From the NCBI GenBank assembly GCA_026991575.1, contig JALXBF010000069.1:46102-66101 (forward strand): a DNA stretch of 20,000 nt, given 5' to 3'. This DNA is from Planctomycetota bacterium (lineage in GTDB: Bacteria > Planctomycetota > Planctomycetia > JALXBF01). Below are positions 1,490 to 13,305 of the stretch, piece by piece (the stretch's first letter is position 1; each line of letters starts with the position of its first letter). A program made the translations under genes and the position numbers. The notes beneath the pieces are model-generated. The model was not told the origin of the DNA. It was given only the letters and a program-made list of their open reading frames with translations, and searched no databases.

Positions 1490-2518
1490 ATGACGGTTCA
1501 ACCAGGCAAAGTACGCGTTGGCATACTGGGCGGTTCCGGCTACACGGGCCGGGAATTGTTGCGCTTGCTGGCGCGCCACCCACATGCAACGATCACCGTG
1601 GTCACGTCGCGGCAATACGTCGGCAAAGCGATCGCAGAGCTACATCCGTCGCTGAGGGGGCTGTACGACTTGTCCTTCCAGGCCAATGACGTCGCTGCGG
1701 TGGTGGACGGATGCGATCTGGTCTTCTCCGCACTTCCGCACTCGCAGAGCATGACCGTGGTGGGCAAGCTGCTGGACGCGGGCCTGCGGGTCATCGACCT
1801 GAGTGCGGACTACCGGTTGAAGGACCCGAATCTGTACGCGGAGTGGTACGCGCTGAGTCACCAGGATACCGGCCACCTGGAGGAGGCCGTCTACGGGTTG
1901 CCGGAGTTGTTTTCCGACGCGATATCGCGTGCCCGCCTGGTGGCTAATCCCGGCTGTTACGCCACGGCCGCCATCCTGGGCCTTGCTCCGCTGGTCTCGG
2001 GAAGGCTTATTGAACTGGATGACGTGGTCATCGATGCCAAGAGCGGCGTCAGTGGGGCCGGCCGTTCCCCCCGCCCTGCCTTCCACTTTCCCGACTGCGT
2101 CGAGAACATGTGGGCGTACCATCCCGGGACCCACCGGCACACGCCCGAGATCCAGGAGGTGCTTAGCTATGTTGCCGGTGAGCCGGTGCGGGTTTTCTTC
2201 ACGCCCCACGTGGTTGCCATCGAACGGGGCATCCATGCGACGATCTACGCGCGGCTGCGGACCCACGAGTCGACCGACGATCTCTACGAGCTCTTCGCTA
2301 CCTTCTACGCTCAGGCGCCGTTCGTGCGGCTGACACGCGACCTGCCCCAGGTGAAGAGCACCACGGGCACGAACTTCTGTGACATCGGTATCCGCCGCGT
2401 GGGCGATCGCGTCGTGGTCTGCAGCGTGCTGGATAATCTATTGAAAGGAGCTTCCGGGACGGCCGTCCAGAACTTTAACCTCATGTTGGGTATCGATCAG
2501 ACAACGGCCCTTTGGTAG
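1490..2518 (+). CDS. argC: N-acetyl-gamma-glutamyl-phosphate reductase
   Basis: Rossmann motif GGSGYTGRELLRLL, DLSADYRL, catalytic ANPGCYAT, DAKSGVSGAGR, HRHTPEI and DNLLKGASGTAVQNFN; 342 aa. Confidence 0.98.
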   Translation: MTVQPGKVRVGILGGSGYTGRELLRLLARHPHATITVVTSRQYVGKAIAELHPSLRGLYDLSFQANDVAAVVDGCDLVFSALPHSQSMTVVGKLLDAGLRVIDLSADYRLKDPNLYAEWYALSHQDTGHLEEAVYGLPELFSDAISRARLVANPGCYATAAILGLAPLVSGRLIELDDVVIDAKSGVSGAGRSPRPAFHFPDCVENMWAYHPGTHRHTPEIQEVLSYVAGEPVRVFFTPHVVAIERGIHATIYARLRTHESTDDLYELFATFYAQAPFVRLTRDLPQVKSTTGTNFCDIGIRRVGDRVVVCSVLDNLLKGASGTAVQNFNLMLGIDQTTALW

Positions 2519-2563
2519 CGGTCACCGCGCCTGCCCGGCGCGCCAAGCCGAGGCACGTTCTCC

Positions 2564-3454
2564 ATGAGAGGAAGCCTGCGCATCCTGGCACTGATTGCGA
2601 TCGGTGTGCTCCTGGTGACCGGTGTTCTCCTGATCGGCTACCTCGCGTGGCGTGCCCGCCACGAAGTGCCGATGCCACCGCCGGTCGCGGCCTTGGAGGG
2701 GCAGGAGCAACCGGACCCGTTCCCTGAGCTCCGCAACTGGCCACTCGAGCGGCTGAAGCCGATCCCCACCGAGATGGTGCTCGTGCCGGCCGGCCAGTTC
2801 CTGTTCGGGCCGAACAACGAACCGCGCACCCTGCCTGCGTTCTACATCGACAAGTACGAGCTAACCCAGTGGCAGTACGCCGTCTTCCTGGAGTACATCC
2901 GGCGCACGAACGACCACAGCAAGTGCCATCCAGACGAGCCCCCGGACAAGGACCACACCCCGCTCGGCTGGGGCCAGCCGTCGATCACCGACAAGCGGTT
3001 CCCGGTTGTCGGTCTCGATTACTGGGATGTGTACGCGTATGCGTCCTGGGCTGGCCGGAGGTTGCCCACCGAAGAGGAATGGGAAAAGGCCGCGCGTGGC
3101 ACAGACGGCCGGCTCTACCCGTGGGGCAACGAATGGGACCCTTCACGGTGCAACTGGGGGCCAGGCCCCGGACTACCACGCACGCTCGTCCCGGTGGATT
3201 CGATGCCTGAGGGGCAGAGTCCCTACGGCTGTTTCCACATGCTGGGCAACGCGGCGGAATGGACCGATACGGTTGCCGATCCGGTACGCGGCATCCGGGT
3301 AGGCAAAGGATACTGTTGGATGCTAGGCCACCTGAAGCCGTACGTGACCACCTACCGGATGCTCGGGGCTACCGAATTGCGTGACCTTGGCAGCGGCTTG
3401 CGCTGCGCGATGGACGCGACCGATGCTGAATCAGCCCGCGCGCCGAAGCGCTAA
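2564..3454 (+). CDS. Membrane-anchored formylglycine-generating-enzyme (FGE-sulfatase/SUMF1) fold protein, probably not a true FGE
   Basis: N-terminal TM helix, then MVLVPAGQFLFG, FYIDKYELT, PVVGL, RLPTEEEWEKAARG, YPWGNEW, SPYGCFHMLGNAAEW and C-terminal GLRCA. Lies 45 bp after argC on the same strand. Confidence 0.9.
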   Translation: MRGSLRILALIAIGVLLVTGVLLIGYLAWRARHEVPMPPPVAALEGQEQPDPFPELRNWPLERLKPIPTEMVLVPAGQFLFGPNNEPRTLPAFYIDKYELTQWQYAVFLEYIRRTNDHSKCHPDEPPDKDHTPLGWGQPSITDKRFPVVGLDYWDVYAYASWAGRRLPTEEEWEKAARGTDGRLYPWGNEWDPSRCNWGPGPGLPRTLVPVDSMPEGQSPYGCFHMLGNAAEWTDTVADPVRGIRVGKGYCWMLGHLKPYVTTYRMLGATELRDLGSGLRCAMDATDAESARAPKR

Positions 3455-4698
3455 CGGATCGGCTCCCCCTGCAGCGTGTTACCCATCTGCACCGCTTCCT
3501 GCGGCCATTGCGGACTGACCATCGGCGCCGTCGGCCGGCTTGGCGGCCGCGTGAACCGCCCCAGCGACGCCTTCACGCCTTGCTTGATTCGCTGCCACAG
3601 CGACGGCCGGCGACCGCCGAGAGGAACGATCCGTGGGGTGGGGCGATGCACGTGACCGGGCGCGACCTGCGGCACACTGTAAGGACTCATCGGAACCGCG
3701 CCTGGCGCGGTCGGGGCAGCAGGCAGCGGCTGCACATGGCCGTGCTGATGCGAGTGGCGATGCGTCGTTGGCCCGGGAACGGGAGGCGGCGGCGGGGTAG
3801 CCAGTGACGGATACGGCTGTCGCTTGCGGCAAGTTTCACATTGGGCTTGTGGGTACTGCGGCAGGCCGCGTGGCCGCGGCTGCGGCTGGACGACACGTGG
3901 AGGCCAGGGCCTGGCAGCCGGCGGCTGTGGCCGGAACTGGTGGAAAAAGTGCTTGAAGCGGTGCCATAGGCTGACGCGGGGCCGCGGTGCCGGATACGCA
4001 GCCGACCACGAGCCGTTGTGCTGATGCGTATGCGGCACAACAGCGTTCGGCGCCGCAGGCGCCGGTACCGCCGCCGTCGTGTCCGTGACGACGGGCGCTT
4101 GAGACGGCTGCGGCCAAACCGTCCCGGGTACCGGCTGGTGCTGATGCCGGCGGCGGGGGCGCCCCAGGAACCTGTCGAACAGACCTACAGGCTGCACTGC
4201 CTGGACGGTGTGGTCGGACCTGCCTTCTGAGGCGGTTCTTGCTGCACCCGGCTCAGACGCTGCCGGCAGGCCGTTCCGAAAAGCAGCGTAGGCGGCGTCA
4301 AGCTCTTCGCGGATTGCCAGCGCCTGCTCATGCTGATTTGCCGCGATCGCATCCTGCAAGGCAACCGAGAGAGTACGAAGTGCGTGGTCGGAGAAGCCCA
4401 GCTCGATGAACGCTCGGGCCACCTCGCGGTGCAGCAGGAGTTGCTCCGGGGTCAGAGCGGGCGTTGCGTCGTCCAGCAGCTGATGCAGGGGCTTCAGCGC
4501 AGCCTCCCCCTGTCCCAACGCTAGCCCCTGACGCACCTGTTCCATGGCGCGCACGACGGCAGCCGAATAGGGCAGGGTGCGGAGCGTTTCCGGAACGCGG
4601 CTCTGTTGCGCGGGCGTGGCGACAGGCAGAGCGGACACGGCCCAACCGAAGGCCGTGCCGGTGGCGATGAGCTTCAGCATCCAACGGCGGTTCGTCAT
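3451..4698 (-). CDS. Hypothetical exported protein: signal peptide, helical (TPR-like) domain and a long Pro/His-rich disordered tail
   Basis: 415-aa ORF with AGGAG upstream of the ATG. The N-terminus MTNRRWMLKLIATGTAFGWAVSALPVATPA resembles a (possibly twin-arginine) signal peptide. Its stop overlaps the stop of the convergent FGE-like gene (CTAA, 3451-3454). Confidence 0.8.
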   Translation of the reverse strand: MTNRRWMLKLIATGTAFGWAVSALPVATPAQQSRVPETLRTLPYSAAVVRAMEQVRQGLALGQGEAALKPLHQLLDDATPALTPEQLLLHREVARAFIELGFSDHALRTLSVALQDAIAANQHEQALAIREELDAAYAAFRNGLPAASEPGAARTASEGRSDHTVQAVQPVGLFDRFLGRPRRRHQHQPVPGTVWPQPSQAPVVTDTTAAVPAPAAPNAVVPHTHQHNGSWSAAYPAPRPRVSLWHRFKHFFHQFRPQPPAARPWPPRVVQPQPRPRGLPQYPQAQCETCRKRQPYPSLATPPPPPVPGPTTHRHSHQHGHVQPLPAAPTAPGAVPMSPYSVPQVAPGHVHRPTPRIVPLGGRRPSLWQRIKQGVKASLGRFTRPPSRPTAPMVSPQWPQEAVQMGNTLQGEPIR

Positions 4699-4870
4699 GG
4701 AAGGAGAACTCCTGGCCTCAGTCCGGCAGCGCAGGGCGGTCGCGTCCTGCCGTTGTTATCGACCTGGCGGCCAGAAAAACTTCAGCCCGCCGATCTGCGG
4801 CCACAGGGCTCAGCGACATGACCGCGCAGCATTCCCTCTGCGGCCAGCACCTGGTTAGCAGAAAGGACGC

Positions 4871-4899
4871 TTGACGTCCAGGGCAGATGCTACTAAGCT
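4871..4899 (+). promoter_or_regulatory. Sigma70-type promoter TTGACG-N17-TAAGCT
   Basis: -35 TTGACG at 4871-4876 (5/6 consensus), a 17-nt spacer, and -10 TAAGCT at 4894-4899 keeping the conserved TA...T; sits in a locally AT-richer intergenic patch. Confidence 0.7.
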
Positions 4900-4905
4900 A
4901 TTAGT

Positions 4906-5016
4906 CGGGAGGGGCGAGTGCAGGCACAAGGGGTGGCGCGCGGTCCAGCGCCGGCCGCGGCCGGTGGCAACACTGGCCGCGGCTTGTTTTCTGCGCACGA
5001 TTGCCCCAGCCTTCCG
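4906..5016 (+). ncRNA. Candidate structured small RNA (three-way junction), family not recognised
   Basis: Starts at the expected TSS of the 4871-4899 promoter. By hand, 4906-4929 pairs with 4984-5016 (bulged stem) and encloses hairpins 4935-4952 and 4954-4983 (13 bp, GCAA loop). The G-U pairs work only on the + strand. Confidence 0.5.
4954..4992 (+). terminator. Intrinsic-terminator-like hairpin (alternative reading of the sRNA 3' domain)
   Basis: GCCGCGGCCGGTG-GCAA-CACTGGCCGCGGC followed by TTGTTTTCT on the + strand. The minus strand has a C-A mismatch and no U-tract. Confidence 0.5.
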
Positions 5017-5023
5017 CGTGCTC

Positions 5024-6481
5024 TCAACTGAGGATCTCGTGTAGGACGTGCCCGTGAACGTCGGTCAGCCGACGGTCCAGTCCGTTGTGGTAGTAGGTCA
5101 GACGGCGGTGATCCAGTCCGAGCAGGTGCAGCACCGTGGCGTAGAGGTCCCAGACCGTTGTGACCTTCTCCACGGCCCTACGACCAAACTCGTCCGTGGC
5201 GCCGTAACTAACACCCCCCTTGATGCCCGCGCCCATGAGCCAGATCGTAAAGCCGTCAGGGTTATGGTCGCGCCCCTTGGTCCCCTGTTGGTGCGTGGGC
5301 ATGCGGCCGAACTCCGTGGTCCACAGCACGACGGTCTCGTCCAGCAGTCCGCGGAGCTTTAGGTCGGTGAGCAGGGCAGCAGTTGGCTGGTCAAGGATTG
5401 GGCAGTGACGCTCGTAATCGGATTTCAACGTCTTGTGTGCGTCCCAGTTCAGCAAGCCGTCGACGCCCGAAGCCCGCGATGCGCAGTAGAGCGTCACGTA
5501 GCGGACGCCGCGCTCCAGCAGGCGCCGCGCCAGCAGGCAATTCCGCGCATAGGCCGCCTTCAGGCGGTTCGGGTCCTCGGTGCCGTACATGCGATGGACC
5601 CACTCAGGCTCGGCGGACAGATCGGTCACTTCCGGTGCGGACAGCTGCATGCGCGCGGCCAGTTCGTACGCGGCGATCCGTGCGGCGAGCGCTTCGTCCG
5701 CTGGCCGCCGCTGCTGGTACCGGTCGTTCAGCAAGCTGAGCAATTGCCGGGTTGCCCGCTCCTCGTCCGGCCCGATGCCGGGGGGGCGGGTCAAGTTGCG
5801 GATGGGCCGATGCGCGGCCAGCACGATCCCTTGATGCCGTGCCGGCAGGAAGCCTGCGGACCAGTTGGCCTTGCCGTTAGGCGGCTCGCCACGGATGTCG
5901 GGGATGGCCACGTAGGTGGGTAGATTCTTGTTCTCACTGCCCAGTGCGTAACTGACCCACGCCCCGGCGCTGGGGAATCCCTCAGCCGTCTGTCCGGTGT
6001 TCATGAACACGCACGCCGGACCGTGTGTGTTGCTGCGGCTCGTCATCGAATGGATGAACGCTATCTCGTCGACATGCTGACTGAGGTGCGGTAGCATCGA
6101 GCTGATCCACTTGCCCGACTCGCCCACCTGCTTGAACGGCCAGGGCGGAGCCATAAGGTTCCCATTCTTGCCCTGAAAGGAGACAAACTGTCCCGCTCCG
6201 GGCAACGGCTCGCCAGCGCGGCGAAACAGCTCCGGTTTGTAGTCCCAAAGGTCGACGTGCGAAACGCCGCCGGGGCAGAAGATCTGTAGCACTCTTTTTG
6301 CCTTCGGCGCAAAGTGCGGTACGTCGCGTCGCCGGGACCGAGTTGCTGCGTCGGTGTCACGGCCGAGGAGATCGATCAGGCTGATGCCAATCAACCCATG
6401 GAGCATACTATCGAGGAAGCCGCGCCGGGTGAGAAGCCCGGCCAGGGATGTTGCCGAGGGCGAGGTTGCGGCGTGCGTCAT
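5024..6481 (-). CDS. DUF1501 domain-containing protein (planctomycete type) with Tat-like signal
   Basis: TRRGFL twin-arginine motif, HFAPKAKRVLQIFCPGGVSHVDLWDYKP, ARRLLERGVRYV, WDAH, TEFGRMP, GRDHNP, GGVSYGATDEFG and RRLTDVHG. Start reassigned to ATG 6481 (7 nt after the upstream gene's stop, GGAG upstream) instead of 6625. Confidence 0.93.
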   Translation of the reverse strand: MTHAATSPSATSLAGLLTRRGFLDSMLHGLIGISLIDLLGRDTDAATRSRRRDVPHFAPKAKRVLQIFCPGGVSHVDLWDYKPELFRRAGEPLPGAGQFVSFQGKNGNLMAPPWPFKQVGESGKWISSMLPHLSQHVDEIAFIHSMTSRSNTHGPACVFMNTGQTAEGFPSAGAWVSYALGSENKNLPTYVAIPDIRGEPPNGKANWSAGFLPARHQGIVLAAHRPIRNLTRPPGIGPDEERATRQLLSLLNDRYQQRRPADEALAARIAAYELAARMQLSAPEVTDLSAEPEWVHRMYGTEDPNRLKAAYARNCLLARRLLERGVRYVTLYCASRASGVDGLLNWDAHKTLKSDYERHCPILDQPTAALLTDLKLRGLLDETVVLWTTEFGRMPTHQQGTKGRDHNPDGFTIWLMGAGIKGGVSYGATDEFGRRAVEKVTTVWDLYATVLHLLGLDHRRLTYYHNGLDRRLTDVHGHVLHEILS

Positions 6482-6488
6482 CGCCTGG

Positions 6489-9335
6489 CTACTCCAGATA
6501 CAGGAACTCGTTGCTGTTAAACAGGGCACGGCACACGGCGCGCAGCCCAAACCGACGGGCAACCGCCAGCGCCGCCCGACGTTCCCGATCGTCCGGGGGC
6601 CGCTGGTACAGCAGCACGAACGCACGCTCCACCTGAGCGGTCAGGTCCGTACCTACCTCACGCTCAATCCGCCGCGTCATGAGCTCGGCCATGTCCAGCA
6701 CGAACGAGTGATTCAGCAGCGTCAGCGCCTGCAGCGGACTGGTCGTCTCGGGCCGCCGTGGCGCGGCGAAAGCCGGATCGGGACAATCGAAGTCGCTGAG
6801 CAGGTCCACCCAGGCAGCCCGAGCATTCTGGTGGTACACGGCCCGTCGGTACGTCTCCGGGCCGACCCGATCTAACGGTTCGTACGTCGCCACGTTATCC
6901 TCCAGATACCGGTACAGCCGAAAACCCGGCCCGCCCATGCGACGGTCCAGTACCCCGGCAGCATCAAGCATCGAGTCGCGAATCTCTTCGCCGGTCAACC
7001 GCCGCGGGGGGTAGCGCCACAGCAGACGCGTGCCGGCATCGATCCGTAGCGCGTCCGGCCGAGCGACCGACTGCTGGCGATACGTGGCCGAAAGGACGAT
7101 CATCCGATGCAGCGGCTTCAGCCGCCACCGGTAACGCAGCAGCTCGGTGGCCAGATAATCGAGCAGCTCGGGGTGAGACGGTAAGCTGCCCATCTGGCCG
7201 AAATCGCTCGGCGTCGCGACGATTCCCTGGCCAAAGTGGTAATGCCAGATACGGTTGGCCAGCACGCGAAGCGTGAGGGAGTTGGAGTCGGAAGCAATCC
7301 ACTGCGCTAGCGCCAGTCGCCGCGTGGCTTCCGGGGCATCCGCCGGCAGCTCGTACCGCCCGACCGTCCTTTCCAGCACGCGGATACTCCGCGGCACCAC
7401 GACCTTGCCTCTGCGCTGCGGGTCCCCCCCGAGGAAAACGTGGAACGGTCCGGGCGCAGCCGTCATGCGACCGACCCAGTAGACGGGCAACGGAGGCACG
7501 GTTCGGATCTTCGCTTCAATGGCTGCTAGTTCGGCTGCGAGCTCACTTAGCCGCTCCCGTTCTTCGTCAGTCAGCCCGGCCTGCAGCAGGCGATGACGAC
7601 GGTGAGCGGCGGTGACCGGCTTGCGATCGTAGCTGTCAGCCACCGTCTGCCAGCGGCGTCCGTCCATGGAGACTTCGATGCGGTACTCGCAGATGAACCG
7701 AGTATAACCGTGTGTCGGCGGTAGCTCCCTGGGCCGATCGCTGGAGAAGACGACGCGGCCGATGACCGCCGGACGAGCAAGCGTGATCGTCAGCGTGGGA
7801 CCGGCAGCAATCCAGCGGGTTCCGAAGTCGCCGTCGATGGCCCGTTCGGCCGAGTAGGCGTCGGCAAAGTCACGTGCGATCCGGCTTGCTCCGTCAGCAC
7901 GTGCTCCCTTGCTCAGAAGTGCCACGTTCTCCGGCTTCGGCCTTACCGTCCAAACCTCAAACTCGTCGATCCGGAAGTCGGTGCGGCTTTCCGGTGCGTC
8001 GTCCCGACCGAACACGACCAGGCGCACGTAGCGCGCCGCCACGGGCTGGAACGACTCCTCCGTCCGGTAGCGGCTGACCGGGGGCCGTTGCCAGCGTTCT
8101 TCCAGACGGTGACGCTGCGCCTCGGCCCGGCGAATCGCACGCTGCCGAATCTCGTCCCGCTCCCGCAGCAGTGCCGCTCGACGGGCCTGCAGCGGTGCCA
8201 GCAGCTGCTGCCGCCGGGCACGCTGCGCCGCAGTGGCTAGCTCCCGGTCTCCATGCCGAACGCCGGCAAACGTAGCGTACCACGAGTAGTAATCCTCCTG
8301 GGTGATCGGATCAAACTTGTGATCGTGGCAGCGAGCACAGCCCATGGTGATGCCCAGGAACGCCTCGGCCGTTGCCCGGATGATCTCGTCCAGCGTGTTC
8401 GCTCGGATGATCGCCGCTTGCACCGGATCCTGGTTGCCCACGTTGTCGTACGGACCACACACGAGAAAAGCGGTGCCAACGGCAACGTCCGGGTTATCAC
8501 TGTCAAGCACATCACCTGCCAGCTGCTCGATGATGAACCGGTTGAACGGCTTGTCTCGATTGAACGAGCGGATGACGTAGTCGCGATAGGGCCAGAGATT
8601 GTTGATGAGTACGTTGCGTTCAAAACCGTTGCTTTCACCGAAACGGGCCACATCAAGCCAGTGCCTGCCCCACTGCTCGCCATAAGCGGGCGAAGCCAGC
8701 AACCGGTCGACGACGCGTTCGTAGGCTGCCGGGTGGTCGTCGTTCAGGAAGGTGAGAAGCAGTTCCTCGTGTGGCGGAAGCCCGGTCAGGTCGTAGCAGA
8801 CGCGACGCAGCCAGGTGCGGCGATCCGTCGGCGGGCTGGGAGTCAGACCGGCCTGCTGCAGCCGCACGTACACAAAACGGTCGATCGGGTTGTGCTGCCA
8901 GTGTTCGGGAGCACCGGGCGTGTCCGGAGGGGAAACCCGTCGTAACGGACGGTATGCCCACCAGTCAGAACCAGCACCTTTGGGACGTAGCACAACGTCC
9001 TCGGGCCAGTGTGCACCGGCGGCGATCCAGCGGCGCAGCGTCTCGATCTGCTCGGGGGTCAGCGGAGGCCCGGCCTTTGGCATCTCCACCCGACCGTCCG
9101 GCCCTGGGGCCACCAGCCGCAGCAGCTTGCTAGCCTCTGGGGCTCCGGGGCGGACCAGCCCGCGGGCTCTGAGGTCTGCTGCCGTGTTAAGCGATAGCCC
9201 GCCTTTGCGCTGCTTGGCATTGTGACAGATCAAACAGCGGCCTTCAAAAATCGGGGCCACATCGCGCCGAAACTCGACCGAGGGCCCGGCAAGCAAGAAG
9301 GCAGTCAGGATGATCGAGCACAGTTCCGCGGTCAC
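6489..9335 (-). CDS. PSD1 and planctomycete cytochrome c domain protein (PSCyt1 + DUF1549/PSCyt2 + DUF1553/PSD1) with an inserted discoidin-like domain
   Basis: VEFRRDVAPIFEGRCLICH heme motif with MP...LRRWIAAGA; NPIDRFV, RRVCYDLTGLPP, YGEQWGRHWLDVARFGE, CARCHDHKFDPI; NRIWHYHFGQGIV, PSHPELLDYLA, RRLTGEEIRDSML, PLQALTLLN and terminal NSNEFLYLE. Confidence 0.95.
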   Translation of the reverse strand: MTAELCSIILTAFLLAGPSVEFRRDVAPIFEGRCLICHNAKQRKGGLSLNTAADLRARGLVRPGAPEASKLLRLVAPGPDGRVEMPKAGPPLTPEQIETLRRWIAAGAHWPEDVVLRPKGAGSDWWAYRPLRRVSPPDTPGAPEHWQHNPIDRFVYVRLQQAGLTPSPPTDRRTWLRRVCYDLTGLPPHEELLLTFLNDDHPAAYERVVDRLLASPAYGEQWGRHWLDVARFGESNGFERNVLINNLWPYRDYVIRSFNRDKPFNRFIIEQLAGDVLDSDNPDVAVGTAFLVCGPYDNVGNQDPVQAAIIRANTLDEIIRATAEAFLGITMGCARCHDHKFDPITQEDYYSWYATFAGVRHGDRELATAAQRARRQQLLAPLQARRAALLRERDEIRQRAIRRAEAQRHRLEERWQRPPVSRYRTEESFQPVAARYVRLVVFGRDDAPESRTDFRIDEFEVWTVRPKPENVALLSKGARADGASRIARDFADAYSAERAIDGDFGTRWIAAGPTLTITLARPAVIGRVVFSSDRPRELPPTHGYTRFICEYRIEVSMDGRRWQTVADSYDRKPVTAAHRRHRLLQAGLTDEERERLSELAAELAAIEAKIRTVPPLPVYWVGRMTAAPGPFHVFLGGDPQRRGKVVVPRSIRVLERTVGRYELPADAPEATRRLALAQWIASDSNSLTLRVLANRIWHYHFGQGIVATPSDFGQMGSLPSHPELLDYLATELLRYRWRLKPLHRMIVLSATYRQQSVARPDALRIDAGTRLLWRYPPRRLTGEEIRDSMLDAAGVLDRRMGGPGFRLYRYLEDNVATYEPLDRVGPETYRRAVYHQNARAAWVDLLSDFDCPDPAFAAPRRPETTSPLQALTLLNHSFVLDMAELMTRRIEREVGTDLTAQVERAFVLLYQRPPDDRERRAALAVARRFGLRAVCRALFNSNEFLYLE

Positions 9336-9382: not shown

Positions 9383-9822
9383 TATGCGGATCCTGCAAGT
9401 AGGCTACCACCGCGGTCGGCGAAAGAAAAGACGTGCGCGTCAGCTCGAATCCAAGACATGCCCCGACTCGTTCTTCCGATTCGGTCGTTCACCCCACTGT
9501 GGAAGGGTCGACACAACCGACAGAGCCGTACGCCCGATCATCACGGCCGGCCGAGGAGCGGTTTCGCGCGATCGAGACGGCCACGGGTCGCGGGGCTGCC
9601 GTGAAGGGCGACGATCGCAGATGGTGGATGCGCATCTGTAGTCGGTCGGCCGTGCCCGCCATCGGGGGGGGCGAGCCGCGACAGCCGGAACCCGCGAAGC
9701 GGGCCGCTTCGGGCTTTCGGCCGTAGCCACGTAGAATCGAGTGAGCTTCGGATGCGGCAGCACGAGCGGCCGCACGCACGCACCGGCCGGCTCGCCGACG
9801 GCCGCTTCGTGGTTGCGTGTCT

Positions 9823-12800
9823 ATGGCAACGCCCGCGATGAGACTCACCGCCGCAGCTATCACGTGCTTCCTCGCCTGTTGCCCGCCGCTCCGGGCACAA
9901 GTTACGCTCGATCCGGATACGGTCCCGGTGCCCCAGCAGACGGCGCGCATGATGCACGTCCCGCCGGGCTGGCGTGTGGAAGTGTTTGCTGCCGAGCCGA
10001 CGGTTGTGAACCCGCTGGCGATCGATTTCGACCAGGAAGGTCGAGCATACGTGCTGGAAGCACGTCAGTACCCACAGAAGGCCCCCGAGAACAAGGCCGG
10101 TGCGGACCGCATCCTCGTGCTCGAGGACACGGACGGTGATCATCGAGCAGACCGCGTCCGCGTCTTCGCCGACGGCCTGAATCTGGCCTCTGGGCTGGCG
10201 GTCGGTTACGGGGGCGTCTTCGTGGGCCAGGCGCCGGAGCTGCTGTTCCTGGCCGATAGCGACGGAGACCTCCGTGCCGATCGCCGTCAGGTGCTTCTAA
10301 CCGGCTGGGCCTACGAGGATACGCACGAGACGCTAAACAGTCTGACATGGGGCCCGGACGGTTGGCTGTACGGCACGCACGGTATCATGCACCATTCGGA
10401 AGTGGCCGGCTACCGGTTCAACGCAGCCGTCTGGCGATATCACCCACGAACGAAGCGGTTTGAACTGGTTGCCGAAGGCACGAACAACCCCTGGGGCCTG
10501 GACTACCTGCCCAACGGTGACTGGGTCATCAGCACCTCCGTGATCCCGCACCTGTACGCCATCGTGCCCGGTGGCTTCCACCGCCACGGTCTGGTTCGCT
10601 GGTGGTCGAACCCATACGCTTACGGAGAGGTCCCCCCCATCGTTGATCATCGCCATTTCCCGCCCAACATGGCTGGCTGGGACCTGGTGCTGAAAACCGA
10701 CAGCGCGACAGTGCCCGAGCCGGTTTCCGACGAGCGTGATCCGGTGCGCGCCTACGGAGGTGGCCACGCACACAGTGGTCTGGCGCTGAGCCACGGCACG
10801 CCCGTGCCTGCCGCTTACCGGAACGCTGCCCTTATCGGCAACCTGCATGGCAATCGCATCAACGCCGACGTCATCCGGCCTTACCGCTCGCTGTACGTGG
10901 CCAGCCATCGCAAGGACTTCCTCACGTGCGACGACCCGTACTTCCGCCCAGTCCACCTGCGCTGGGGGCCCGACGGCTCCCTCTACGTGCTCGACTGGTA
11001 CGATCGCCAGATCTGCCACAACACGGACGAGGCGGTGTGGGACAAGCGGCTCGGTCGCATCTACAAGGTCATCCCCCCTGAACGCCCGGCCACGGAACGT
11101 GACGCTTCCATCGAACAGCTGCTGGTGAGCGAGTATGTCTGGCACTGGCGGCTGGCCCTGAGGTTGATTGCAGAGCGGCGGGCGTCGGTGCCACGAAGCA
11201 CACTCGTGCGCATGCTCGATACCGCTGCGGAGCCGATGGCGTTGCGAGCATTGTGGGCGCTACATCTGTCCGGTGGACTAACCGAAGCGGATCTGCGACG
11301 GCTGCTGGCGGATCCGCGCAGTGAGCTCCGCCGATGGGCGGTTCGACTGCTCAGCGAGCCACAGTATCGGGGCCGCGTGGATGAGTTTGCCGACGAGCTA
11401 CTGCGACTGGCCGCCCGGGAGCCGTCGCCGCGGGTTCGCCTGGAGCTTGCCTCAGCCGCCACGCGGTGGGCTGCGTGGGGGGGACGCGAAGCTCTGCTAC
11501 ACGAGTTGATGCTCCACGATGAGGATGCCGATGACCCGGCCATCCCCGCTCTAATCTGGACGGCATACGAATCCGATCTTGAACACCACGCGGCCCGCCG
11601 GGCCGGGTGGTTGGCCAAGCACAGTGATCGGGCTGTCATCCAGCGCCACGTGCTGCCTTGGTTCCTGCGCCGGCTGGCAGAGGACGGAACCGACTCGGCA
11701 TTGAGGCTGGCTCTGGACACGTTGGCGCAAGTGCGCTCGGCGGACGCGGCACGGTACACGCTGCGTGAGTTCGCACGCGGGCTGAGCAGGCCGTCAGAGA
11801 AGCTGGCGACCGAGTGGGCACGTGTCCGTTCTGCGCTGGAACCGTTGCTTGCGCGACCGGCGGACCGGCTTCTGCTGGCGCGGGTAGGTGCGCTCTTCGC
11901 GGACCCCTGTGCGGTCAGCATGCTCATCGCGGCGATGCACGAGGCCAATCGCCCGCCAGCGGAACGGTTGGCTGCCGTTGAGGTGCTGGGACGAACGCCG
12001 GTGGAGCAGGCGCGCGAAGCGCTGGTGTCTGCAGTCCTGGACAGCAAGCTCCTACTAAGCGTGCGCAGGGCGGCCGTACAGGCGATGAAGCGGGGCATGA
12101 CCCGGGCCCAGGCAGCTGAGCTCGTGCGGCACTGGCATCGTGTTCCCCCCGAACTCCAGCATGAGGTGTTGCTGCTTTTGGCCACGTCGCGGCTCGGGGC
12201 AGAGCAGCTGATTGCGGGCATGGAACGCGGATGGGTGCCGCGGGACGACGTGCCCGAGGGGGCTGTGCGGCGGATCCTGATGGTTGCTGACAGAGCGCTG
12301 GTCGAGCGGTTGCGCACGGTCTGGGGCAACCTTCAGGCGATGACCGTGCCGGAGGCCCGGCGGGAGATCGCTCGCCTGGGCCCTGCGCTGGCGACGCTAC
12401 CCGGGAACCGCCACCGAGGCAAGCGGCTGTTCAGCACGCACTGTGCCGGCTGCCACCGGTTCCGCGGAGAAGGCCATGCCGTCGGCCCGGACCTGGAGGG
12501 CGCCCAGCTGAACGACCCATTCTACCTTTTGTATAACATCGCCGATCCAAACCGCGTCGTCGGCGCCGCTTACTACACCGTGCGGGTCATGGACCGGCAG
12601 GGACGAGTGCACCAGGGACTGCTGGTCCGCCGCGACGGCAGCGGGCTGGAACTGAAGGCCGAACAGGGTCAGACGCTGCGGTTCAGCCGGGACGAAGTGG
12701 AAGAGGTGCGCGTCTTACAAGAATCGCTGATGCCAGCAGACATCGCGAGCCGGTTCACGGCCCAGCAGTTCGCCGACCTGGTCGCCTACCTGATGGGCGA

Positions 12801-13305
12801 CCTTCGCTTGACGGCAGGTTACCGCTACGGGCCACTCGTTGCTGACCGGCCGCTTGAGAGCACATTGCCGGTGGACGGTAGGTTGAACCCGCTAAGCTAT
12901 GACCCGGAGGGATGGCAGCCGTTTCGGATCGGCCCGGCAGGGAAGGTCATCTTCTCCATGGTGGGGCTGGATCGGAACCGGCGACCACCTGAGGCTGCAT
13001 ACTACGTGTACGTACGGGTGTACAGTCCGACGGCACGGGACGTGACCATGTGGCTGGACGCCCGTAAGGCGGCGCGGGTGTGGGTCAACGGCAACGAAGT
13101 GTTCACGGGACGGAAGCTGACGGTACCCGTGCGGTTTTCGATCACGCTGCGGCGGGGCGAGAATGAACTGCTCATCAAGCTGGCCAACATCGTGCGCGAT
13201 CCGAACGCCCCGGCGGCAGCGGGTGAGTGTTCGTTTGCGGCCTGGTTGGTCGACCCAGAGCATGAGCTGGCGCTGATCAGCCCGGACGGCGACCGCATCC
13301 AGTGA
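9823..13305 (+). CDS. PVC-type heme-binding CxxCH protein (putative membrane-bound dehydrogenase beta-propeller, HEAT-like repeats, cytochrome c, C-terminal beta-sandwich)
   Basis: Signal peptide; VPPGWRVEVFAAEP, DRILVLEDTDGDHRAD, DTHETLNSLTWGPDGWLYG, NPWGLD, GGGHAHSG, FRPVHLRWGPDGSLYVLDWYD, GRIYKV; HEAT-like repeats; GKRLFSTHCAGCH...VGPDL...IADPN...SLMP. Start may be 9817, 9823 or 9838. Confidence 0.93.
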   Translation: MATPAMRLTAAAITCFLACCPPLRAQVTLDPDTVPVPQQTARMMHVPPGWRVEVFAAEPTVVNPLAIDFDQEGRAYVLEARQYPQKAPENKAGADRILVLEDTDGDHRADRVRVFADGLNLASGLAVGYGGVFVGQAPELLFLADSDGDLRADRRQVLLTGWAYEDTHETLNSLTWGPDGWLYGTHGIMHHSEVAGYRFNAAVWRYHPRTKRFELVAEGTNNPWGLDYLPNGDWVISTSVIPHLYAIVPGGFHRHGLVRWWSNPYAYGEVPPIVDHRHFPPNMAGWDLVLKTDSATVPEPVSDERDPVRAYGGGHAHSGLALSHGTPVPAAYRNAALIGNLHGNRINADVIRPYRSLYVASHRKDFLTCDDPYFRPVHLRWGPDGSLYVLDWYDRQICHNTDEAVWDKRLGRIYKVIPPERPATERDASIEQLLVSEYVWHWRLALRLIAERRASVPRSTLVRMLDTAAEPMALRALWALHLSGGLTEADLRRLLADPRSELRRWAVRLLSEPQYRGRVDEFADELLRLAAREPSPRVRLELASAATRWAAWGGREALLHELMLHDEDADDPAIPALIWTAYESDLEHHAARRAGWLAKHSDRAVIQRHVLPWFLRRLAEDGTDSALRLALDTLAQVRSADAARYTLREFARGLSRPSEKLATEWARVRSALEPLLARPADRLLLARVGALFADPCAVSMLIAAMHEANRPPAERLAAVEVLGRTPVEQAREALVSAVLDSKLLLSVRRAAVQAMKRGMTRAQAAELVRHWHRVPPELQHEVLLLLATSRLGAEQLIAGMERGWVPRDDVPEGAVRRILMVADRALVERLRTVWGNLQAMTVPEARREIARLGPALATLPGNRHRGKRLFSTHCAGCHRFRGEGHAVGPDLEGAQLNDPFYLLYNIADPNRVVGAAYYTVRVMDRQGRVHQGLLVRRDGSGLELKAEQGQTLRFSRDEVEEVRVLQESLMPADIASRFTAQQFADLVAYLMGDLRLTAGYRYGPLVADRPLESTLPVDGRLNPLSYDPEGWQPFRIGPAGKVIFSMVGLDRNRRPPEAAYYVYVRVYSPTARDVTMWLDARKAARVWVNGNEVFTGRKLTVPVRFSITLRRGENELLIKLANIVRDPNAPAAAGECSFAAWLVDPEHELALISPDGDRIQ

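Follow-up and report, generated by a model that had tools for sequence, protein, structure and literature searches.

Positions 4871–4992 on the plus strand of a 20,000-nucleotide (nt) stretch of planctomycete DNA are read here as a stand-alone gene for a small RNA (sRNA), which would act in trans, would be controlled by an operator and would be tied to the neighbouring gene of a 415-amino-acid (aa) protein. The stretch, hereafter called the window, comes from a Planctomycetota bacterium (GenBank assembly GCA_026991575.1, contig JALXBF010000069.1; G000:C69:46102-66101 in our notation, where G000 is the source genome), and coordinates are positions in this window unless a contig is named. We lean towards this composite reading by a small measure, while the narrower claim that a small plus-strand transcript exists is held with greater confidence. 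The role of the RNA is probably regulatory. What is new is an RNA without an Rfam family; its kind, the stand-alone bacterial sRNA, is already known. The original prediction for this DNA had proposed a free-standing small RNA with an orphan promoter, and this part is supported by the syntenic recurrence of the whole unit in G001, the sole other genome of the same family and the representative of the only known sister genus.

In the proposed mechanism, a sigma-70-type promoter (TTGACG-N17-TAAGCT) would start transcription at about 4905–4907 and would be controlled by a candidate operator, TACTAA-N4-TTAGT, that encloses its −10 box. An intrinsic terminator, composed of the hairpin 4953–4984 and the adjoining U-tract, would stop transcription near 4990, which would give a product of about 86 nt in G000 and, in the sister genus, one of about 70 nt. 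The functional part would be a 34-nt core, in which AAGGG is predicted to stay unpaired in G000 as well as in G001. The RNA would then act in trans without Hfq, either by pairing with C/U-rich stretches of messenger RNA or by binding a protein, and would be functionally grouped with the divergent, exported-looking 415-aa protein in an arrangement similar to that of MicF and ompC.

A conserved unit in two genera

The predicted RNA lies in the intergenic stretch 4699–5023, between two minus-strand genes. A blastn search with 4700–5030 against the whole genome of G001 aligned 34 nt at 94% identity (E 1.3e-7), with CAAGGGGTGGCGCGCGGTCCAGCGCCGGCCGCGG in G000 and CAAGGGGTGGCGCGTGGTCCAGCGCCGGCTGCGG in G001. 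The same query was run against 41 related genomes, four of which gave a match, the self-match of G000 included; the matches in G013 and G002 (L004, L005) were rejected as coding DNA. When the whole 20-kb window was compared with G001 by blastn, 53 matches were obtained. Fifty-two of them fall within long open reading frames (ORFs) at 64–83% identity, and the core is both the sole non-coding match and the one with the highest identity of all 53. The contrast with the neighbouring 415-aa protein is of the same kind: the RNA core is 94% identical between the two genomes, whereas the protein shares 37% identity with its ortholog (E 2e-47). The core is therefore conserved above the intergenic background, as judged against the one available relative.

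The elements around the core are kept as well. In G001, the unit consists, in order, of CTTGACA, a 17-nt spacer, TAATGT, the core, a hairpin of different sequence and a T run. CTTGAC, the spacer length, CTACTAA, TTAGT and the core are shared by both genomes, and the surrounding intergenic DNA is unalignable. The unit is also syntenic: in G001, too, it and the ortholog of the 415-aa gene are divergently oriented, with a similar distance between them. These comparisons bear on the simplest alternative, namely that a GC-rich hairpin happens to lie next to a fortuitous promoter-like string. GC-rich intergenic DNA generally folds well, and a consensus scan calls no promoter at this site; yet a syntenic 94% match (with the E value given above) in otherwise unalignable DNA, with the promoter boxes in register, already makes coincidence unlikely, and we consider it the least probable account of this locus. 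The features of the unit and of its two neighbours are collected in Table 1.

Table 1. Features of the predicted sRNA unit and its surroundings (window positions unless a contig or locus is named).
Feature	Position	Strand	Remarks
−35 box TTGACG	4871–4876	+	TTGACA in G001; CTTGAC identical in both
−10 box TAAGCT	4894–4899	+	17 nt past the −35 box; TAATGT in G001, also at 17 nt
Palindrome TACTAA-GCTA-TTAGT	4891–4905		Encloses the −10 box and reaches the predicted start site; candidate operator
Palindrome sites in both genomes	4891–4905; G000:C58:58803-58816; G000:C181:25682-25695; G001 L058, L059, L060, L061
Predicted RNA	4907–4992	+	About 86 nt; start at about 4905–4907 from the −10 position, end placed in the U-tract
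5′ extension	4908–4925	+	About 17 nt, specific to G000 and absent from the G001 alignment; predicted to pair with the core
Conserved core	4927–4960	+	34 nt, 32/34 identical to G001
Hairpin 1, GGCGC-GCGGTCCA-GCGCC	4935–4952	+	Stem invariant between G000 and G001
Terminator hairpin	4953–4984	+	14 pairs (11 G-C), GCAA loop; from the terminator scan
U-rich tail TGTTTTCT	4985–4992	+	CTTTTTTGTT after the stem in G001
415-aa gene	3451–4698	−	Divergent from the RNA unit; sole conserved neighbour
DUF1501 gene	5024–6625	−	Convergent with the RNA; the PSCyt/PSD1 gene comes next

Predicted promoter and candidate operator

The promoter boxes named in the original prediction are present at their place on the plus strand, and their register is kept in G001 as TTGACA-N17-TAATGT. 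It is this conservation of register, and not a consensus score, that supports the predicted promoter. Its architecture appears plausible for the organism, since the 6S RNA gene of G000 is preceded by TTGCCC-N17-TACGCT, which has the same TTGnnn-N17-TAnnnT layout, and since TTGAC[AG]-N17-TAnnnT occurs 49 times in G000, as compared with about 17 occurrences expected from base composition by our own arithmetic. With these upstream boxes and a T run at its 3′ end, the 6S gene can serve as a benchmark for calling promoters and terminators in this organism.

The palindrome around the −10 box reads TACTAA-TGTG-TTAGT in G001. Sites of the form ACTAA-N4-TTAGT number three in G000, where about 0.56 would be expected (again by our own arithmetic), and four in G001; the control with the reversed pattern gave none. 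All seven sites are intergenic and overlap or abut promoter-like boxes. One orthologous pair is located upstream of a class-I methyltransferase gene, where ACTAAAATGTTAGT is identical in both genomes and TAAAAT stands in the same register, 17 nt past TTGCCG or TTGTCG. Further sites are found upstream of secreted-looking proteins with an initial LEPRCLLS or LEDRCLLS motif, one of which carries RTX calcium-binding repeats, and one site lies 57 nt upstream of the gene for a 481-aa membrane protein. Taken over these sites, TACTAA-N4-TTAGT may be the shared operator of a small regulon.

Two other features of this region were noted in passing. The −35 box is situated within a small inverted repeat, GGACG-CTTGA-CGTCC (4865–4879), which appears in the scan as terminator-like on the minus strand, with the tail TTTCTGCTAA. 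The same intergenic region of G001 contains a different terminator-like hairpin on the minus strand (L003 1408-1389).

Fold, terminator and strand asymmetry

The plus strand of 4900–5025 folds better, relative to shuffled sequences, than the minus strand (−68.6 kcal/mol, z −2.59, with 2/200 shuffles as good, versus −56.7 kcal/mol, z −1.28, with 27/200). In G001, the corresponding values are −45.7 kcal/mol (z −3.55, 0/200) for the plus strand and −35.2 kcal/mol (z −2.03, 7/200) for the minus strand, and the advantage of the plus strand amounts to about 10–12 kcal/mol in both genomes. For the shorter segment 4906–4994, a fold of −52.2 kcal/mol (z −3.19) was obtained.

The sequences for both local structures described in the original prediction, GGCGC-N8-GCGCC at 4935–4952 and a GCAA-capped stem at 4954–4983, are present. 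In the structure computed by RNAalifold from the two sequences, the terminator hairpin comes immediately after hairpin 1. For G001, hairpin 1 has a predicted probability of at least 0.997. In the predicted RNAs of G000 and G001 alike, AAGG(G) in the core is left unpaired, with a probability of 0.94 or more.

The 3′ end of the unit has the form of a Rho-independent terminator on the plus strand in G000 and G001 alike. Its orientation is not ambiguous: the U-tract lies on the plus side only, and on the minus strand A-C mismatches take the place of the G-U pairs of the hairpin, so that the strand asymmetry initially described for G000 holds in both genomes. Among the 16 pairs aligned by RNAalifold, 13 are unchanged, two are changed on one side and one is changed on both sides. 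This last one, the pair 4956–4981, is compensatory (C-G in G000, U-A in G001). The stem is conserved at its base, and the upper stem in G001 is formed by an unrelated, yet self-complementary, sequence. The terminator structure has been maintained through sequence change. This does not extend to the GNRA tetraloop, which exists as GCAA in G000 but is replaced by a CUU loop in G001.

A larger structure had also been proposed for this RNA, i.e., a three-way junction of about 110 nt (4906–5016), closed by an outer pairing of 4906–4929 with 4984–5016, which would switch between termination and antisense read-through into the DUF1501/PSD1 genes. The outer stem can form (duplex energy −26.9 kcal/mol), and the minimum free energy (MFE) structure of 4906–5016 is indeed a three-way junction (−67.3 kcal/mol). 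However, neither the stem nor the junction is conserved or above chance. In G001, 17 nt of the 5′ strand are missing, and no conservation is seen in the 3′ strand (4996–5016), which is located beyond the U-tract and would be absent from the terminated RNA. Once the main hairpin is removed, the remaining fold resembles that of shuffled sequences (−36.5 versus a shuffle mean of −33.1 kcal/mol, z −1.12, 64/500 as good), an outcome which the original prediction itself had set against its proposal and because of which the junction and its outer stem do not rise above chance. The switch finds no counterpart in the sister genus either, where the DUF1501 ortholog is on another contig and the nearest convergent ORF is about 480 nt away. 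A junction RNA of this type is thus considered highly improbable.

Searches for relatives

With Rfam 15 at gathering thresholds, no match was found in the whole window. At E ≤ 10, the region 4650–5100 returned only sub-threshold matches to plain hairpins, namely CRISPR-DR29 (22 and 13.5 bits versus 39) and Ms_IGR-4 (17.6 versus 55). The genes for the signal recognition particle (SRP) RNA (G000:C36:14654-14753, 67.3 bits) and for the 6S RNA (G000:C58:54670-54859, 57.9 bits) are located elsewhere in the genome, and the absence of known-family signatures from the locus, as first reported, is upheld.

The core pattern, allowing up to three mismatches, matched two of 401 genomes of the class, namely G000 and G001. 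An exact degenerate form of the pattern, searched in one genome per species, gave 46 loci, and the flanks of all of them were read. Only one locus (L034) has both promoter and terminator, and over the part compared its sequence does not differ from that of the G001 locus. The other 45 loci are without promoter and terminator and were rejected; many of them share a common, protein-coding-looking context in Thermoleophilaceae-type records, as judged by eye. A scan of metagenome contigs returned a single locus, on the same contig as that of G001.

A covariance model (R1) applied to 61 genomes matched 22 of them at E ≤ 1. The scores were 99.6 bits for G000 and 91.7 bits for G001, and the next best was 27.9 bits. 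The weak matches that were inspected (five aligned and two more) were all rejected as coding DNA or plain terminators. L065 corresponds to the end of a coding frame, L064 amounts in essence to a terminator hairpin, and the match in G003 lies inside long open frames. Within G000, no paralogs of the RNA were found by blastn, and the gene is present as a single copy. As far as these data reach, the RNA occurs in two genomes of a single family and nowhere else.

A separate observation concerns G001, in which near-identical repeats around CCACCCCTTG occur on three contigs (L080, L083, L087) and, as a distinct set, on two (L078, L088). Their distribution suggests repeat or insertion-element families.

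Coding potential and neighbouring genes

The conserved core could in principle represent about ten codons of a short ORF, i.e., of a small protein or a leader peptide. Both substitutions in the core occupy third positions in the frame CAA GGG GTG GCG CGY GGT CCA GCG CCG GCY, bearing in mind that two substitutions share a phase by chance about one time in three, and in G000 GGGAGGGG is found 5 nt before an in-frame GTG. That frame, however, has no usably spaced start codon in G001, and for the other frame there is none in G000. The peptides encoded after the core are unrelated in the two genomes and in both would traverse the hairpin and the T-tract. A 93-aa plus-strand ORF at 4577–4858 has no Pfam match. 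The RNA unit is probably not coding, and a peptide encoded by the core is regarded as very doubtful.

The succession of a promoter, a short structured RNA and a terminator is also the layout of a riboswitch leader, so that the unit might be a cis-acting leader (riboswitch or attenuator) for a downstream plus-strand gene. The gene order speaks against this. The unit has minus-strand genes on either side and, in agreement with the original prediction, is not followed by any plus-strand gene in G000 for 4.8 kb. In G001, the next plus-strand gene is 1.2 kb from the element, and the minus-strand ORF that lies in between has a homolog in G000. Moreover, no Rfam aptamer was matched, and a leader function is given hardly any weight.

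The sole conserved neighbour of the RNA is the divergent gene of the 415-aa protein. No Pfam or NCBIfam family was found for this protein, whose N-terminus MTNRRWMLKLIATG (MTNRRWMLK...) resembles a Tat signal by eye and whose C-terminal half has a high content of His and Pro. It is present in two of 13 related genomes searched, again G000 and G001, and in both about 170 bp lie between the promoter-side start of the gene and the −35 box of the RNA unit. On the other side, the neighbour is not conserved, since the DUF1501 ortholog of G001 is on a different contig from the RNA unit. DUF1501 and PSCyt/PSD1 are families typical of planctomycetes. Further out, the genes asd (1490–3454) and DUF7133/cytochrome c (9817–13305) flank the RNA locus in both genomes, with rearranged order and orientation in G001 (L008), and the FGE-sulfatase and DUF1501/PSD1 genes are found on other contigs of that genome.

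The same intergenic stretch contains a second hairpin, GCAGGGCGGTCGCGTCCTGC followed by CGTTGTTATC, at 4726–4763 on the plus strand, which is terminator-like in the scan and corresponds to the CRISPR-DR29 match of 22 bits (versus 39). A reading as a CRISPR repeat was rejected, as the sequence is present in a single copy in the genome. It is not conserved in G001. The hairpin may be a structure in the 5′ untranslated region (UTR) of the 415-aa gene.

Weighing the proposed sRNA gene against control at the DNA level

A number of observations weigh against the sRNA gene favoured here. To begin with, its predicted promoter is absent from the output of a strict sigma-70 scan in both genomes, because the −10 box matches TATAAT at only three of six positions (T1, A2, T6). 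The comparison comprises two sequences, and the stem of hairpin 1 is identical in them and therefore carries no covariation signal either way. Furthermore, hairpin 1 is not part of the MFE structure of the G000 RNA (pair probability 0.003). This structure has −51.4 kcal/mol, versus −47.3 kcal/mol with hairpin 1 enforced, and in it the 5′ segment of about 17 nt pairs with the core instead.

The proposed partners add to this list. Hfq (PF17209) was not found in G000, which is 97.84% complete, by a search whose control matched five of 14 reference genomes; the classical chaperone route would therefore be unavailable. Seed-and-extend duplex scans over G000 are dominated by GC-rich noise and, together with a check in G001, revealed no convincing target. 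A target search of start-codon regions, for which our own crude ORF and GC3 gene caller was used, gave 53 rows. The best lead, a stretch of 12 complementary nt within the 5′ UTR of a prepilin-type gene (G000:C82), was dropped; the site has no counterpart upstream of such a gene in G001. The complement of the 10-mer seed is not enriched in G001 either, with 15 sites versus 29 for the reversed control.

Two last points belong to a specific alternative. The conserved inverted repeat about 240 bp upstream of the divergent gene could be a protein-binding site, and the G000 hairpin, 40 nt past the stop codon of DUF1501, could also terminate that minus-strand gene. Under this alternative, the core and the palindrome would be protein-binding sites that control the 415-aa gene at the DNA level, and the hairpin would simply be the terminator of a minus-strand gene. 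The core does hold the inverted repeat GGCGC-N8-GCGCC at about 220–250 bp upstream of the 415-aa start in both genomes, and the palindrome recurs at other promoters. On the other hand, a block of 34 nt at 94% identity exceeds the usual length of an operator, and both promoter boxes are retained in the plus direction at a spacing of 17 nt. The one-sided U-tract and the G-U pairs described above favour the plus strand in both genomes, and the closest convergent ORF of G001 has its end at a distance of about 480 nt. Simple scans detected no sigma-54 or sigma-70 pattern on the minus strand, which is a weak negative; for sigma-54, a regular-expression search for the GG/GC pattern with up to three mismatches gave no match on this strand in G000 or G001. 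Control at the DNA level is judged unlikely on balance, but it is the main alternative.

Comparison with known small RNAs and terminators

Trans-encoded sRNAs of enterobacteria, such as RybB and MicF, have a 5′-proximal seed and a Rho-independent terminator, and the micF gene is divergent from ompC. The planctomycete unit resembles these RNAs in having its own predicted promoter, a predicted length of 70–90 nt, a GC-rich hairpin with a U-tract at its end and, close to the 5′ end, a conserved stretch that is exposed (in G001, 4 nt from the predicted start). As in the case of micF and ompC, it is divergent from the gene of an exported-looking protein, with which it has a common upstream region. 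Unlike RybB and MicF, it has no sequence or Rfam relationship to these RNAs, no Hfq gene was found in its genome, and its exposed motif is G-rich (AAGGGG) and not complementary to the ribosome-binding site. A sponge of the CsrB/RsmZ type is not indicated: the exposed AAGGGG is without GGA, and each of the two RNAs contains one GGA, at non-conserved places.

The best sRNA-type match in Rfam, RF02468 (Ms_IGR-4, an sRNA of Mycobacterium), is a GC-rich hairpin of similar size that covers 4952–4985. Its score of 17.6 bits compares with a gathering threshold of 55 (E 1.9), and it falls on the minus strand and includes the terminator stem only; the planctomycete RNA is not a member of this family. 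The unit also has traits of intrinsic terminators, including bidirectional ones, with its 14-bp G-C-rich stem followed by TGTTTTCT and its position in G000 between the RNA and the convergent DUF1501 gene. It differs from such terminators in its one-sided U-tract and its conserved promoter and core, and in G001 no convergent gene end is nearby. With the 6S and SRP RNAs it shares the features of a small, structured RNA encoded by a stand-alone gene, but both of these were located at other places in the genome above the Rfam cut-off.

Significance for planctomycetes

As it stands, the unit is one more candidate sRNA from two genomes, and its value is local rather than conceptual. Within this frame, it offers a promoter-to-terminator unit with a core that is more constrained than any nearby protein-coding DNA, and its palindrome provides a handle on a possible regulon. 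Among the texts reached by full-text literature searches, no paper on planctomycete sRNAs was found, so that RNA-based regulation seems to be hardly described for Planctomycetota.

A wider and distinctly more tentative view can be formulated, which seems possible to us but doubtful. The RNA would be the founding member of an undescribed, Hfq-independent family of regulatory RNAs in one uncultured family of planctomycetes. It would belong to a TACTAA-N4-TTAGT regulon that includes the methyltransferase and the secreted LEPR/RTX-like proteins, and its AAGGGG core would control envelope or exported proteins, the 415-aa protein among them. If true, it would be among the first trans-acting sRNAs of Planctomycetota with comparative support.

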